Origin: a virus
Lineage: Duplodnaviria > Heunggongvirae > Uroviricota > Caudoviricetes
Reading direction: 5' to 3' (one strand)
DNA length: 64,000 nt
Virus record (IMG/VR): IMGVR_UViG_3300033067_001661
Coordinates: 64,001-128,000 of that record
In this document: piece after piece, positions 44,060 through 51,309 of the stretch
Layout of the letters: every line of letters begins with the position of its first letter
Position numbering within the stretch: position 1 is the stretch's first letter
Position numbers and translations under genes: made by a program
Notes under the pieces: model-generated
Seen by the model: the letters and a program-made list of their open reading frames with translations, nothing else
Told to the model about the DNA's origin: nothing
Databases searched by the model: none

Positions 44060-44737
44060 TTAGAATCCAAGATCAAGCTTGCCCGAAGCAGCCTTTGCAG
44101 GAGCAGCGGTCGGGGCCGAAGCAGCTTGCGCTGGGGCCTTTGACTTGCTCGGATAAAGCTTCTCTTCGATTTCGCTCTGAGGAGTTGGAGCAAACTCCTT
44201 ACCAAGATCCCAAAGATCCTGTTCCTTCAACATCGCCTTCTCTTCATCAGTGAAAGGCGTTTGAACAACTGGAGTTGTGTTGTACTCAGTACGCTTCTTG
44301 TCGCCGCTTGCCGGAATCTTAACGGTGATTTCGAAATCTGCGCCGTTTCTATTACCGGGGTGCTGACCTGAAGCCTTTGCCCAGCGCTTGATTGCCTCAA
44401 ATACGCTAGCAGGAGCCTCCATAATCTTCAACTTGCCATCGGCACGATCAATGACATTTACCGCATAGCGAGGCTTGGCCTCAACATTGTACTTCTGACG
44501 AATAATGCAGTTCTGAGGGTCTTCTGTGATGGCCCTGTTGAACCTCTTAGGATCGTCTGGATTTGCAATGTAATAGGCGTAAAAGCCGCATGGGTCGCCA
44601 ACAGGACGGACTCTGTAAGTTGTACCCTGGATGCTTCCAGTCAACTTAAGATACTTGCTATCATTGCCTCCGCCCTTGCCACCCTTCTTACCCGTCGAAG
44701 TCGTATCAATATCATCCCAACCAATTATCTTACTCAT
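44060..44737 (-). CDS. phage single-stranded DNA-binding protein (gp32-like)
   Basis: YRVRP, PRYAVNVIDRADGKLKIME, GADFEIT, TEY, Ala/Pro linker and DLGF tail. Confidence 0.75.
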   Translation of the reverse strand: MSKIIGWDDIDTTSTGKKGGKGGGNDSKYLKLTGSIQGTTYRVRPVGDPCGFYAYYIANPDDPKRFNRAITEDPQNCIIRQKYNVEAKPRYAVNVIDRADGKLKIMEAPASVFEAIKRWAKASGQHPGNRNGADFEITVKIPASGDKKRTEYNTTPVVQTPFTDEEKAMLKEQDLWDLGKEFAPTPQSEIEEKLYPSKSKAPAQAASAPTAAPAKAASGKLDLGF

Positions 44738-46575: not shown

Positions 46576-48552
46576 TCACCCAAAAATATTACCAACAATG
46601 ACGCCCTTCTTCTTCGCCCTCTTTAGGTCTTCTCTAATAACCTCAAAAGTCTTAAGAACTTCCTCTCTATTTGCGCTTCGACCGCCGCCCTTAGCAGGCT
46701 TGAAGAATCCAGCGTTCAACAAAGACTCAAACGATTTCGCATCGACCATCTTCGTGTCAGTCTTTTCCGCAAACTCTTGAAGGCTAGCATAAGGTTGATG
46801 CTCTACGATATTGTTCGCAGCATTATGACTCAAGCCTTTGCACTTTATAGAAGGCATGATTTGCGACCTTGGAACGCCATTAGCAGGGTCCGCCTTCTTG
46901 ACAATGAAATACTCAAGCTTACACTGATTGATTTGCCTTGGCAAAATCTCCACGTTCATTTCTTTAGCCATCTTCTCAAGAGCGTCAACTTTATCATAGT
47001 TTGAACGGTTGATTTCAACATTAAGATAAGCTGTAAGGAACTCTTCTGGGAAGTTTGCCTTCAAATAAGCAGTAACATAAGAGTTATAAGCATAGCAGCA
47101 AGCGTGCGCCTTATTGAAACCGTAATCAGCAAACGGCATGATTACCTTGTCCCAATAGTCTTGAGCAATCTTCTCTTCTACGTTATTCTCTTTTGCGCCA
47201 GAAATAAACCTAGCCCTATACTTCGCCAAAAGCTCTGGTTTCTTTTTACCGATTGCCTTAATAACAACATAACCCTCAGGGATAGAAAAGCCTGCAATCG
47301 AGTTACAGATCTGCATGACTTGCTCTTGATATACAAGCAATCCATAGGTCTTCTTGAGATAAGGTTCAACGTACTTCTTTAGAGAAGGATGGAAATAGTT
47401 GATAGATTCCGAACCATGCTTGCGGGCGCAATAAGTCGGAATCGAGTCCATCGGACCAGGACGATACAAGGCGATACCTGCCATGATGTCGTCAAGGGAG
47501 TCAACTCCCATGTTAATCATGGTCTTCTGCATTCCAGTCTCTTCGCACTGGAATACGCCCGTTAGCTTACCGCTCTTGTACAAATCAAAAGTCTTCTTGT
47601 CTTCAAGAGGTAAGTCATAAATGTTGATCTTCAAGCCATAGTTTTGCTCAACAAGCTTACAGCATCGGCCAATAACCGAAAGTGTGCTAAGAGCAAGAAT
47701 ATCGAACTTGATTAGTCCAAGAAACTCTAAATCATTGTACTCAAACTGAGTTGCAAAAGCATATTTAACTTCGCCGTCTTCGGCTGTGTCTGTAATCTTG
47801 CTTTGCTTAAGCGGAGCTATGCGTCCAAGAGGCTCATTCGATATAACAATACCGGCAGCATGCACTCCGAATATAGATAAAAGTCCCTCAATACTCCTAG
47901 AGTGTTCAAGTATAGCAGGGTATTTCTCCATATAATATGCAAACTTAGAACACCATTTATTAGCATCTTGGACGGTCTTGATTGGATGTTCATTTCCTTG
48001 ATCATCTGTTACTTTCAAAAAAGCGCCATACTGAGGCGGAAGAGCATTCAATATCTCATCGCCAAGTTCGTTGGTCTTTGTTTTCCACTCGTCATAACCC
48101 TTGAAAAAGGTATTCTCTGGATCTATAGCCTTGACCGCTCGGCGAACAAACGATTTCATCTTAAGACCAGAATACGTTCCGATGTTACCGACATGCTCTC
48201 TTCCGTAGGTATCAATGATGTATTTATACATCTCGTCTCTACGTTCGTAGTCAAAGTCGGAGTCAATATCGGGAAAACCTTTACGAGCAAATGCGCGACG
48301 CTTTGGCAAAAACTCCGAACCTTCGTCAGGCTTCTTATCAGTCATTCCAAGCGCATATGCCGTCCAAGAATTGATATCATTACGATGACCAACCTTACCA
48401 TGAGAATGCTTCCAAATGGAATGAAACTTTTGTAGAACAGGCTTTTCGTCCAAGCCCTCTATCTGCTCCATTAGAGCTATCTCTTTTTCAATCAAAGGCA
48501 AAAGGGACTTGTCCTTAACTGCCTCCAAGATTTCTTGCTTCATATCCGCCAT
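46576..48552 (-). CDS. dnaE: DNA polymerase III alpha subunit, C-terminal part (palm/fingers/HhH)
   Basis: PDIDSDF, GVHAAGIVIS, KFDILAL, GVFQ, ALYRPGPM, TYGLLVYQEQVM, YGFNKAHA, YLKANFPEEF. Confidence 0.93.
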   Translation of the reverse strand: MADMKQEILEAVKDKSLLPLIEKEIALMEQIEGLDEKPVLQKFHSIWKHSHGKVGHRNDINSWTAYALGMTDKKPDEGSEFLPKRRAFARKGFPDIDSDFDYERRDEMYKYIIDTYGREHVGNIGTYSGLKMKSFVRRAVKAIDPENTFFKGYDEWKTKTNELGDEILNALPPQYGAFLKVTDDQGNEHPIKTVQDANKWCSKFAYYMEKYPAILEHSRSIEGLLSIFGVHAAGIVISNEPLGRIAPLKQSKITDTAEDGEVKYAFATQFEYNDLEFLGLIKFDILALSTLSVIGRCCKLVEQNYGLKINIYDLPLEDKKTFDLYKSGKLTGVFQCEETGMQKTMINMGVDSLDDIMAGIALYRPGPMDSIPTYCARKHGSESINYFHPSLKKYVEPYLKKTYGLLVYQEQVMQICNSIAGFSIPEGYVVIKAIGKKKPELLAKYRARFISGAKENNVEEKIAQDYWDKVIMPFADYGFNKAHACCYAYNSYVTAYLKANFPEEFLTAYLNVEINRSNYDKVDALEKMAKEMNVEILPRQINQCKLEYFIVKKADPANGVPRSQIMPSIKCKGLSHNAANNIVEHQPYASLQEFAEKTDTKMVDAKSFESLLNAGFFKPAKGGGRSANREEVLKTFEVIREDLKRAKKKGVIVGNIFG

Positions 48553-48575
48553 TTATCGTCTCCAATTGCAAAAAC

Positions 48576-49424
48576 TCACGGAAAACACATTGGCAATTTT
48601 TCTTTATCTTGAGCATAAGAGCTTTTCTTGACAACCAAAACTTCTACAGCCGTATCTTTTTTATCAGAAGTTTGCATATGCTTTACGACACTCTTCTCAT
48701 AAAAAGAGTAACCTTTACTTTCTGGATAAAGCTGCCTTATAAAGGGACTATCGTAATAGGATATTGCAACAGAACCCTTTATGCTGTCAATGTATTTAGC
48801 CATGTCTTTATGGTTGAAACCATCAGTCATGTTGACATGATAGAACATCTTCTCAACATTTTCATAAGGAGGGTCCAGGTAAAATAAAGCCTCTGGACAG
48901 TCCCACTTCTTAATACATTCCTTGTAATCAAGATTTTCTATGTAAACGTCTTTGAAGAACTTAGCGCATTTAGCAACAAAAGGCGGCAAGGTCGCCCAAG
49001 AAAGACAAATATTCTCTCCTGTTCTTGAAACGCACCATGTTCCGTCTTCCTTTCCAAACATAGACTGTCTATTGTAGATAAGATAGTTTCTTGCCCACTC
49101 AACAGGATCTTCTTTTACAAAGTCCCTCTTCGATTCGATATACTCAACCGCTTTCTCAAACTCTTCTCTAGAATATGGAGTTAATTCAAGCTTCTCAAGA
49201 AAAACATCTTTGTAATCTCTAAGAACTCTAAATAAGTTCCATACATGACTATCTAAATCATTGTAAACCAAACGATACTCGCCGTCTGGCTTTGGCAATA
49301 CAAAACCAACGGCAAAGCTACCGCCAAAAGGTTCGCAATACAGCGTATGCTTTGGAAATAGCTTTTTGATCCAATCTCTAAGCTTGACTTTGCCGCCAAC
49401 TCTTTTTATGATTGTATCTGCCAT
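48576..49424 (-). CDS. Dam-like DNA adenine methyltransferase
   Basis: GGK, YCEPFGGS, VYNDLD, IENLDY, FYLDPPY. Confidence 0.9.
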   Translation of the reverse strand: MADTIIKRVGGKVKLRDWIKKLFPKHTLYCEPFGGSFAVGFVLPKPDGEYRLVYNDLDSHVWNLFRVLRDYKDVFLEKLELTPYSREEFEKAVEYIESKRDFVKEDPVEWARNYLIYNRQSMFGKEDGTWCVSRTGENICLSWATLPPFVAKCAKFFKDVYIENLDYKECIKKWDCPEALFYLDPPYENVEKMFYHVNMTDGFNHKDMAKYIDSIKGSVAISYYDSPFIRQLYPESKGYSFYEKSVVKHMQTSDKKDTAVEVLVVKKSSYAQDKEKLPMCFP

Positions 49425-49918
49425 TTGCCATTTCTCTTAATAAGAAGCACGCCCTGCTCTTTTAGTATATTTCTGAACTTACCAGTACCATATTTAGTAG
49501 GCTTTTCAATAATCGGAGCATTCTCGAAAACTTCCTTGCTAACCACAAACGCACCTTGTAGATCAATAGACACAATAACTAAATAGTTTGTTCTAGATTG
49601 CCGAGGATTATGAGTTATACTCTTTCTGTTAGGAAATGAAAAGCCTTCCGATTCAACCCTCTTGGGTAAGCTCTCAGCGCTCTTCCAGAATTCTTTCACT
49701 TCAACGTCAAAATAAACCGCATCCTTCTTACTATTAACTCCCCTAACATCCCAAAAAGTTAGATCACCGTCTTTCATTTCATTTTCGCGAAGAAAAATAT
49801 CCGTATAAAAGCCTGAAGCCTCTAGTATTTCCTTTAGAGTCTTCTTCCCAACAAGGTCATACTTGTCATTAAGTTCCTTATCAAAGGGTTTTTGATCATC
49901 AAGAAAATGCATAATCAA
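49406..49918 (-). CDS. putative PD-(D/E)xK endonuclease
   Basis: WDVRG..YFDVEVK candidate active site; overlaps the methylase start. Confidence 0.5.
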   Translation of the reverse strand: MIMHFLDDQKPFDKELNDKYDLVGKKTLKEILEASGFYTDIFLRENEMKDGDLTFWDVRGVNSKKDAVYFDVEVKEFWKSAESLPKRVESEGFSFPNRKSITHNPRQSRTNYLVIVSIDLQGAFVVSKEVFENAPIIEKPTKYGTGKFRNILKEQGVLLIKRNGKWQIQS

Positions 49919-51309
49919 TACCTATCTACGCCACCGGCGTCTTCTGTTACATCCCTATCTTCAAACAACTCTTCGCTGACAGGCTTCTCTTCGACCTTTG
50001 TAACAACCTCTCCGAAGAAGTCCTGGTCTTGAACAAAATACTTGTCGTCGAAGCCAAGGAATCGCTCCCAAATCAAATCATACTTCAATGGGTCTGGACC
50101 GTAAGCAATACCAAGCACTCTAAGAAGAACGCTTGCATAACCAGAACCTCGACCGCAACCAGTAAGGATAGACTTGTTAGTAGCCTCTTGAATGTAATCT
50201 CGAACAATAAGGAAGTAAGTTGCAAAATCGTATTTGTTATTCTCCCATGCAACTCTAACATCTTCAAGCTCTCTCTTGAGCCTTTCCTTATGAGGCTCGC
50301 TACGATCCCATCCAAGTTTCTTCATACCTTCCCATGCAATATGAGAAAGATAATCAAACGGAGAGGCAAAGCCTTCTGGAATCTTGTACCTAGGCAACCT
50401 CATGCCAGAAGTCATGTTCTCAAAAATATCCTTAGCATCTATCTTATCAGCAACCATGACTGTATTGAGAAGAAACTCTGGATGAGATCCAAACATTACA
50501 GACATCTCAAGAGCAGACTTGAGATAGAATTCATGGTACGGAAAATGCAATCTCTTTGGATCGTTAAGACAACGACTCGTACTCATGCACATGAGTATTT
50601 CTTGTGAAGAACCATGCTCTTTCTTACAATAGTGACAGTCATTTGTGGCAATGATTGGAACATTCATTTCATTGCCAAGCTTTATGATATCAGGAATAAT
50701 TGCCGCTTCCGCTTCAATTCCATGATACATAACCTCTAGATGGAAGTCTTCCTTGAAAATATCCTTGAAAAGAGCAACAGACTTCTTAGCCTGGTCATAA
50801 CGGTCATGAAGCAAGTTAGCGTTGATAACGCTGCTAAGACAAGCTGAATTACAAATCAAACCTTCGCTATGTTCAGCCAAAAGGTTGATATCAATTCTTG
50901 GGTCAATATAAACCCCTTCGGTCCATGACTTTTGAGATAAAGAGCAAAGGTTCTGCCAACCTTTCCAGTTCTTTGCAATAAGAACCAAGTGGCGATTACC
51001 TTTTCTTCCGTCAGGTTGACCCTTCACAATCTTATTGCCGTCTTTCTTTTCACCTCTCAAGTGACGGTCTTTAGACAAGTAGAATTCGCAACCAATAATA
51101 GGCTTTATACCCTCTTTATTGCATTCTTGAGTAAACTTGACCGCTCCGCCCATATTGCCGTGGTCAGTCAACGCTAAGGCCTTAAACCCCATTTCCTTAG
51201 CAGCCTTAGGAAATTGAGATATCTTATTCAAGCCGTCAAAAGACGAATACTCGGAATGATTGTGCAAATGCACAAAATCGCTATTGCTTATGATTTTTGC
51301 CATAGTCAT
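49915..51309 (-). CDS. dnaE: DNA polymerase III alpha subunit, N-terminal part (PHP domain and start of palm)
   Basis: FVHLHNHSEYS, ALTDHG, GCE, HLVLIAKN, TNDCHY, YFLIV, GRGSG, DPLKYDLIWERFL; likely start at ATG 51303. Confidence 0.93.
   Translation of the reverse strand: MTMAKIISNSDFVHLHNHSEYSSFDGLNKISQFPKAAKEMGFKALALTDHGNMGGAVKFTQECNKEGIKPIIGCEFYLSKDRHLRGEKKDGNKIVKGQPDGRKGNRHLVLIAKNWKGWQNLCSLSQKSWTEGVYIDPRIDINLLAEHSEGLICNSACLSSVINANLLHDRYDQAKKSVALFKDIFKEDFHLEVMYHGIEAEAAIIPDIIKLGNEMNVPIIATNDCHYCKKEHGSSQEILMCMSTSRCLNDPKRLHFPYHEFYLKSALEMSVMFGSHPEFLLNTVMVADKIDAKDIFENMTSGMRLPRYKIPEGFASPFDYLSHIAWEGMKKLGWDRSEPHKERLKRELEDVRVAWENNKYDFATYFLIVRDYIQEATNKSILTGCGRGSGYASVLLRVLGIAYGPDPLKYDLIWERFLGFDDKYFVQDQDFFGEVVTKVEEKPVSEELFEDRDVTEDAGGVDRY

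Follow-up and report, generated by a model that had tools for sequence, protein, structure and literature searches.

The window analyzed here is a stretch of 64,000 nucleotides, bases 64001–128000 of the 333.6-kb giant-phage record IMGVR_UViG_3300033067_001661 of IMG/VR (estimated completeness 66%), and the subject of this report is its gene for a C-family replicative polymerase, the DnaE-type alpha subunit of DNA polymerase III (Pol III alpha), which occurs there in two pieces. The phage is uncultured; metagenomes of wastewater and rivers contain the stretch, as do four metatranscriptome libraries from wastewater. Four tightly packed genes on the minus strand, on which all window features described below lie, make up the locus: the N-terminal part of DnaE (N-half, 464 aa, 49915..51309), orf170, a D12-class methylase gene, and the C-terminal part of DnaE (C-half, 658 aa, 46576..48552). 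DnaE-type Pol III alpha is as a rule a single polypeptide; here it corresponds to two open reading frames (ORFs) 1362 nt apart, the gap being filled by orf170 and the methylase, neither of which had been mentioned in the first-pass annotation of the window, whose listed sequence details otherwise proved correct throughout. Both halves are intact, each with its own start and stop codon; the stop codon of the N-half is followed by the next ATG within 2 nt, and a ribosome-binding site (RBS), GGAG (48560..48563), can be read from the sequence 7 nt ahead of the C-half ATG. On the 1190 positions of PHROG 405, the N-half covers 38–435 and the C-half 439–938. The locus gave no blastn match among 50,697 phage records, and tblastn returned only about 32–42% identity, the best matches labelled 'Bacteriophage sp.' being bacterial dnaE contigs. 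Two such human faecal records, MT837338.1 (L010, which serves below as the canonical DnaE) and MT835885.1 (L011), hold a full-length bacterial-type dnaE with an OB domain, L011 next to apparent housekeeping genes, one of them phosphofructokinase-like by eye, and both look like bacterial contigs rather than phage.

The N-half opens with the N-terminal PHP domain typical of the DnaE family (PF02811, E 1.6e-46, aa 14–196) and continues into the N-terminal, nucleotide-binding part of the palm (PF07733, positions 2–97 of 260); by BLASTP, its residues 7–418 align with residues 1–390 of the canonical enzyme at 42% identity. In 21 N-half homologues the PHP metal-ligand positions and the GRGSG sequence are invariant or nearly so, a conservation that, as judged from the alignment, suggests intrinsic proofreading. 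Intrinsic proofreading by the PHP domain is established for Mycobacterium tuberculosis DnaE1. The GRGSG sequence, which is the GS motif (aa 386–390, 50140..50154), is invariant at all five positions in alignment A1 (G386, R387, G388, S389, and G390). Beyond it, ERFL (aa 415–418) and the start of the tail, GFDDKYFVQDQDF (aa 419–431; together 50017..50067), are kept in all split relatives and in all single-chain relatives that carry the insert described below. The first-pass annotation had claimed GRGSG and then an acidic tail of about 45 aa at the end of this gene, and 46 residues were indeed counted after ERFL. The tail is not merely acidic: an acidic linker is present (aa 432–450, 49960..50016, variable and under the least constraint), and it is preceded by a conserved, strand-forming start and followed in most relatives by a conserved end motif, DRDVTEDAGGVDRY (aa 451–464, 49918..49959). 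This end, of the form R[DE]VxxDxGGVDRY, is nearly invariant in 17 of the 21 N-halves and absent from the fused forms, the other four N-halves being short forms that end just past a conserved DF. As to GGVDRY being a general docking motif, no other copy occurs in the 333.6-kb record. In one relative (L026, 12554-12886) a 110-aa ORF in the gap between the halves ends in ELEDDLGGVDRY, the same C-terminal motif as the N-half tail; an insertion may have left a duplicated gene end there, or the ORF encodes another protein with the same docking motif.

The C-half comprises a duplicated head, the catalytic part of the palm, thumb, fingers, and HhH. Pfam finds the remainder of the palm (PF07733, positions 69–260), the fingers (PF17657, 2.8e-51), and HHH_6 (PF14579), and these matches, with those to known structures given below, show that the fingers, the HhH, and the overall DnaE fold are present. 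The catalytic strand PDIDSDF (aa 94–100, 48253..48273) has P94, D95, D97, and D99 invariant in alignment A4; the third catalytic aspartate, D284 within KFDIL (47701..47703), is invariant in the same alignment together with K282, and its region aligns by BLASTP with canonical KMDFLGL. The GS motif and the three catalytic carboxylates of a Pol-beta-like palm are therefore all present and invariant, but they reside on two chains. YGFNKAH, which adjoins the site at which an intein divides cyanobacterial dnaE, is intact at residues 477–483 (47104..47124), with Y477, F479, and N480 invariant, as the first-pass annotation had stated, and the same annotation was right that the C-terminal region appears to be missing: Pfam detects no OB fold (PF01336) or tau-binding region in the C-half, and the matches stop at position 938 of the 1190 of PHROG 405 and at canonical residue 909 of 1177, so that the OB and tau-binding C-terminus of DnaE1 is absent. 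Many C-halves that carry the head N-terminally, among them P0277, P0279, P0282, P0283, and P0288, measure 1045–1083 aa and thus exceed that of the window by about 400 aa.

Ahead of PDIDSDF the C-half carries 93 residues, including the INSWTAYALGMT stretch, which had been put at about 90 in the first-pass annotation and likened there to a palm helix already present in the N-gene. The duplication at the junction is real and longer than had been noted. The head (aa 1–92, 48277..48552) is a diverged second copy of the palm N-segment, with an INSWTAY helix, and the duplicated stretch itself spans C-half residues 14–78, a copy of the palm segment with which the N-half ends. BLASTP aligns C-half residues 14–649 with canonical residues 316–909, overlapping the match of the N-half by about 75 residues, and hhalign, run with a profile of 26 C-heads against a canonical palm N-segment profile built from 58 bacterial DnaEs with the PDID strand excluded, gave a probability of 91.7% and an E-value of 7.9e-7; the 63 matched columns are colinear, interrupted at the GS loop by a single gap of 2 residues. 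It is on this profile–profile match, together with the extension of the BLASTP and Pfam matches, that the homology of the head rests. The head is conserved in 19 relatives, and in every head the place of the GS motif is taken by R-N or, in the majority of relatives, by K-N. Only 18 proteins were returned when the head region was searched by words, a limit of that method, and a full HMM search was used instead; among 1.84 billion representatives it retrieved 70 clusters at 50% identity, and among those listed the head lies at or near the N-terminus (split state) in all but three, where it is internal (fused state). No bacterial DnaE among the 1.84 billion representatives was matched by the head HMM.

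Between ERFL and PDID there is a lineage-specific insert of about 105 aa, to which the head belongs. In the canonical enzyme 7 residues separate ERFL from PDFD, in line with the spacing quoted in the first-pass annotation, and the distance from GRGS to PDxD is 39 residues in bacteria, 48–56 aa in compact relatives, and 152–160 aa in fused-insert relatives. Three gene states can be distinguished: compact single-chain forms of 991–998 aa without the insert (L029, with 998 aa, P0154, and others); fused-insert single-chain forms of 1071–1117 aa (P0152, with 1100 aa, and others), with the start of the N-tail, a short linker, and the whole head; and the split form. The earlier claim of a split through the palm is thus upheld insofar as the GS motif and the aspartates stand on different chains, but not as to the position of the cut, which lies in the linker of the insert and not between canonical neighbours. 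The gene is contiguous in relatives such as L029 and P0152 and consists here of two separately translated ORFs, the hallmark of 'genes in pieces'. The same breakpoint, which the first-pass annotation had proposed to look for in other phages, was found as separate N- and C-halves in 20 of 24 related giant-phage loci fetched with an alignment of the N-half, and in every such split locus the halves stay linked. The split state occurs in dozens of contigs of up to 548 kb, and the best 120 N-half homologues in the range of 255–812 aa, on contigs of up to 502 kb, are all 405–503 aa long except one intein-bearing form. The split state is old and widespread. In a quick maximum-likelihood tree of the N region, the fused-insert forms are basal and the split and compact forms are interspersed, with at least four changes each; in one compact form, which groups as sister to a split form, the junction still has the GFD and FARAGF residues of the split type, which suggests a secondary deletion, more than one order of duplication, fission, re-fusion, and deletion being conceivable.

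Genes divided in this way may be rejoined by an intron, by trans-splicing, by a split intein, or by ribosomal bypass; inteins and homing endonucleases are abundant in this genome and in its relatives, and in other giant phages fragmented genes are joined at the RNA level by splicing of group I introns (PMC12880540). At this junction, however, Pfam finds no Hint or intein domain in either half (E ≤ 0.01), as the first-pass annotation had already reported; the N-half ends in GGVDRY and the C-half opens with a helical palm copy, unlike the parts of a split intein, and Rfam has no match at E ≤ 1 between 46000 and 52000, where ORFs occupy the gap in place of a group I or group II intron. Among the relatives the gap varies from 6 nt to 2.9 kb of unrelated protein-coding genes, the N-half has a conserved C-terminal motif, the C-half has its own RBS and ATG, and a joined product would still carry the insert of about 105 aa. 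In the four wastewater RNA libraries, the contigs follow the genomic order at both junctions: those covering 49397-50025 (the N-half end, orf170, and the start of the D12 gene, Dam) are identical in three runs, and those at 48536-49422 and 48140-49426 cover Dam and the start of the C-half. A joined form, 49915-48552, is absent from the contigs of all four libraries, which may include DNA. Rejoining of the halves is largely refuted and, in our estimation, most improbable.

Comparison of the window genes with six relatives gave dS values above 2 or not computable (saturated), with low dN along most of both halves: 0.13–0.26 for the N core, 0.03–0.26 for the start of the N-tail (aa 419–433), 0–0.31 for the last 14 residues of the N-half, 0.28–0.64 and 0.08–0.32 for head residues 1–54 and 55–92, respectively, and 0.16–0.38 for the rest of the C-half. 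The acidic linker (aa 434–450), with dN of 0.39–1.24, is the sole unconstrained part. Both halves, including the head and the ends of the tail, are under purifying selection, and since dN is low while dS is saturated, the head is not a decaying relic; the degenerate remnant suggested in the first-pass annotation is instead a conserved module, present also inside single-chain relatives. It could be supposed that the split gene as a whole is a broken relic and that replication depends on the host polymerase or on one encoded in the missing third of the genome, since the record is only about 66% complete and neither the OB/tau-binding region of the enzyme nor, in the 333.6-kb record, a beta-clamp domain was found. 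The strong purifying selection on both halves with saturated synonymous sites, the invariance of all catalytic residues, and the maintenance of this state, which is seen on dozens of contigs of up to 548 kb and in 70 or more clusters at 50% identity, make such a relic very improbable. The first-pass annotation had named an intact dnaE elsewhere, with decay of these genes, as an observation that would speak against its reading, and neither was seen: no PolA, PolB (PF00136), or second DnaE palm occurs in the 333.6-kb record (about 66% complete), in which the two-gene DnaE is the only recognisable DNA polymerase of the phage.

The arrangement of the insert in three dimensions was approached with the fused relative P0152, modelled with AlphaFold on an alignment of 89 sequences (mean pLDDT 93.1, pTM 0.88), whose model matches the Pol III alpha structures of Taq and M. 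tuberculosis with E about 1e-61 and a TM-score of 0.75 (3e0d). Reading along the chain, one finds, after the GS loop and the helices of the N-copy, a strand at 417–420 (the start of the N-tail, the FDEK equivalent), a short helix, a sole weak block at residues 431–440 (pLDDT 64), the four helices of the head, a strand at 532–535 (RRAFAR), and the catalytic strand, both of the former strands being confident. The cut of the split form falls at the weak block, that is, at the linker. That the [DE]xDF sequence of the N-tail might be a second copy of the catalytic DxD strand was considered but is not supported, since it forms a short helix (residues 425–428) and no strand in this model. The C-half of the window modelled alone (AlphaFold mean pLDDT 88.8) shows the head helices 2–11, 15–30, 39–49, and 63–67 at pLDDT 80–95, with RAFARK (aa 86–91) below 50. 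By VIA-align, the model superposes on Escherichia coli alpha (2hnh) with Z 27.5, residues 88–644 on chain residues 392–910, and because the superposition starts at residue 88, the head is modelled outside the canonical position of the N-palm, which is left free for the N-chain.

These models bear on whether the two halves form one enzyme or two. The C-chain might be a self-sufficient polymerase and the N-chain a stand-alone PHP exonuclease or phosphoesterase, the two being at most loosely associated; in that case it would fit well that the head keeps the secondary-structure order of the canonical N-palm and folds confidently, and that the palm of the C-chain is nominally complete by sequence. 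Two functionally separate proteins are nevertheless unlikely: R-N or K-N replaces the GS motif in every head, GRGSG and ERFL stay invariant throughout the N-halves, although a role of the PHP domain alone would give no reason for this, the head is modelled off the canonical position, the RRAFAR strand is disordered when the N part is missing, and the two genes are linked in every locus. Alternatively, the head may act as a regulatory pseudo-subunit, a decoy that would hold the C-chain in an inactive state before it is displaced or complemented by the N-chain, so that activity would depend on co-expression. A conserved, folded, GS-less copy of what the N-chain supplies would suit such a role, and in the subclade of the window the genes lie apart, so that their expression could differ; the same head, however, is present in single-chain relatives, where there is no assembly step, it is not modelled in the canonical site, and in some relatives the halves are only 6–14 nt apart, suggesting coupled expression, all of which leaves a decoy function quite improbable.

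The reading that we favour, with a probability of roughly 0.7, is that the replicative DnaE of this phage consists of two separately translated polypeptides that assemble non-covalently into one obligate two-chain polymerase; the fission of a replicative C-family polymerase inside a duplicated-palm insert is itself real, conserved, and intein-free. Gene anatomy, homology, conservation, distribution, and the lack of splicing signals are direct observations, whereas we infer the assembly, the interface (including the part played in it by the duplicated segment, as proposed in the first-pass annotation), and the activity of the two chains. In favour of this reading are, besides the intact halves, the purifying selection, the recurrence of the split, the single-chain relatives with and without the insert, the weak block of the P0152 model at the cut, the lack of another polymerase in the record, and the lack of signs of rejoining, all described above, the following: the GS motif is invariant in the N-halves and the aspartates in the C-halves, with heads that lack the GS motif; the RRAFAR stretch is weak and the head off the canonical site when the C-half is modelled alone; and split phage enzymes are active elsewhere, as exemplified by NrdA-a/NrdA-b and gp43A/gp43B (see below). 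The N-chain would supply the PHP domain, probably a proofreading exonuclease, and the nucleotide-binding half of the palm with GRGSG, its helices, and ERFL; the C-chain would supply the three catalytic aspartates, the thumb, the fingers, and the HhH. The break lies in the flexible linker of the insert, most of which is a GS-less, diverged duplicate of the preceding palm segment. After fission, the start of the insert would have become the N-tail, with its short strand, short helix, acidic linker, and GGVDRY end, and the C-chain would have received the helical duplicate as its head. What holds the chains together is probably the usual packing of one palm half against the other, along with pairing of the N-tail strand with the RRAFAR strand just ahead of PDID, and in the subclade of the window the acidic tail with its terminal GGVDRY probably docks as well. 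The space between the genes would since then have served as a landing place for cargo, occupied here by a hypervariable nuclease-like gene and Dam. A more elaborate proposal, which we consider unlikely, is that the GS-less head and the acidic GGVDRY tail constitute a purpose-built device for both assembly and control, such that the replicase becomes active only once the chains meet, with the N-chain as an exchangeable or regulated subunit and the space between the genes as a co-regulated slot for cargo, for example the Dam/nuclease pair.

Several points weigh against an obligate two-chain enzyme. The match of the head to the own N-copy of the phage is not significant (hhalign E 0.3, 13 columns), and the head alone has no DnaE match in Pfam; the homology is real but old, and since the significant similarity is to the canonical segment and not to the N-copy, these comparisons point to no particular donor of the duplicate. 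The pairing of the strands and the interface were read from secondary structure and model confidence and may be placed differently in the assembled enzyme. Since the record is 66% complete, another polymerase could sit in the missing part, and the contigs of the RNA libraries may be carried-over phage DNA, hence weak evidence of transcripts. Finally, some relatives are devoid of GGVDRY, so that this motif is not a general glue between the chains.

Division of a phage gene into separately encoded parts has precedents, T4 gp39/gp60 being one example of 'genes in pieces'. In cyanobacteria, dnaE is likewise carried by two genes, which are split beside the YGFNKAH region and healed by split-intein protein trans-splicing; in the window, by contrast, this site is uninterrupted and Hint domains are lacking. 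Among described systems, the nearest is the minimal split Pol III alpha of group 2.2 (T4-like) jumbo phages (Iyer et al. 2021, Viruses 13:63, PMC7824862), also found in giant phages; there, the C-family module is divided over two proteins, the N-terminal one binding NTP and the C-terminal one Mg and DNA. The topological cut is the same, between the GS motif and the DxD strand, and falls here between ERFL and PDID. The group 2.2 enzyme is a minimal core without PHP and other domains, encoded by distant genes alongside a family B replicase (PMC7824862), whereas the DnaE of the window is full-size (PHP, palm, thumb, fingers, and HhH), its genes are neighbours 1.4 kb apart, no PolB or PolA was found in its record, and the cut lies inside a duplicated-palm insert. 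The functionally closest systems are NrdA-a/NrdA-b of Aeromonas phage Aeh1 and gp43A/gp43B of Aeromonas phages 25 and 44RR. In Aeh1, an essential phage enzyme is cut in its catalytic region into two polypeptides that reassemble without splicing, a 'gene in pieces' whose new C- and N-terminal junction tails are needed for function and which was split by the mobE homing endonuclease, the tails stemming from the mobile element (Crona et al. 2011, NAR 39:1381, PMC3045599); in the window, on the other hand, the enzyme itself was the source of the junction sequences, through an internal duplication, and fused relatives already possess them, and the gap can be empty. For gp43A/gp43B, a split family B polymerase, the account cited here (Petrov et al. 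2010, reviewed in PMC2988022) describes a phage replicative polymerase on two adjacent genes, whose halves co-purify and are active and whose gap is either an untranslated spacer only or an endonuclease gene; polymerase family and fold differ from those of DnaE, and a duplicated junction segment is not mentioned in that account. The literature searched, including papers on PaBG, gut phages, and Jug phages, contained no description of a full-size two-gene DnaE.

C-family polymerases are bacterial replicases and drug targets, and the close relatives described here provide a natural series in which the enzyme is compact, carries an internal half-palm duplicate, or is divided so that the GS motif and the metal-binding aspartates fall on different chains. 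Should these chains prove to restore activity when combined, a Pol-beta-like active site can be built from separate proteins, communication between polymerase and PHP proofreading could be studied in a natural system, and the locus would represent a clean case of gene fission via duplication, with the gap then used as a cargo slot of giant phages. The case also bears on annotation, in which such halves routinely appear under the label of a partial 'DNA polymerase III alpha' or of 'unknown function' (PHROG 7513).

The gap is empty in some relatives (14 nt in L018 and 6 nt in L030), is replaced by an 8-nt overlap in L021, and measures 0.1–2.9 kb in others, where the identifiable content is unrelated cargo such as ClpP, dCMP deaminase, SAM methyltransferase, Zn-finger proteins, and many small ORFs. 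In the window it holds orf170 (170 aa, 49406..49918), which lies in a hypervariable slot and encodes a probable PD-(D/E)XK-type nuclease, and the D12-class N6-adenine (Dam-type) methyltransferase (282 aa, 48576..49424; PF02086 1.6e-24, PHROG 56 4.6e-59, and PADLOC type II methyltransferase 3.5e-29). The orf170 product has no match in Pfam, PHROG, or PADLOC; ORFs at the same position in five relatives are 17–23% identical to it and have in common D...(S/D)xE(V/I)K and NRKS, and leads from the protein atlas are PDDEXK_14 and PDDEXK_16 at 0.92–0.93. Among the contigs of the RNA libraries there is a joint at 49426/49889, with loose ends leading into other sequence at the same two places, from which it follows that the body of orf170 (49427-49888) is swapped in co-occurring strains, the flanks (the start of Dam and the end of the N-half) being retained. 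All seven relatives whose C-half is at least 72% identical have Dam between the halves (Dam 64–85% identical); it is absent from this position in more distant relatives. Since Dam is thus confined to this subclade, the split predates the cassette; it is independent of the Dam/nuclease pair, a later insertion of cargo. As for a link of the split to a mobile endonuclease, orf170 yields only the PD-(D/E)XK lead, and the gap is elsewhere empty or filled with non-nuclease cargo. The putative, fast-evolving nuclease and the conserved methylase possibly form a restriction-modification-like or host-DNA-degrading module, which would ride in the slot between the halves and share its expression with replication genes. 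A 225-aa ORF (44060-44737) of the same replication gene block, located two genes downstream of the C-half, ends in LDLGF, which resembles an SSB-like C-terminal tail.

The N-half of the window has no intein; in several relatives the PHP part of the N-half is interrupted by inteins with LAGLIDADG and Hint, at aa 74 in L004, L009, L016, L017, and L030 and at aa ~221 in L007 and L031, so that these N-halves reach 830–920 aa. In L007 (6024-9293), which shares its contig with L031, the C-half in turn consists of two pieces, of 328 aa and 474 aa, with a free-standing 290-aa C2H2-zinc-finger ORF between them; the first piece has a weak terminal Intein_splicing match (E 0.0057, below the cut-off), the second opens with about 47 residues ending in HN, followed by C, and this arrangement may represent a split intein or a 'fractured gene'. 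Many small ORFs in the gap of several relatives (L023, 11422-14307; L024, 11404-12517; L026, 12867-13328; L028, 11749-11988; L033, 11310-11555) encode proteins whose C-termini share a motif, (N)RFEILD[IL] or its variants RFEIMDM and KWTILDI, and which make up a family united by this tail.

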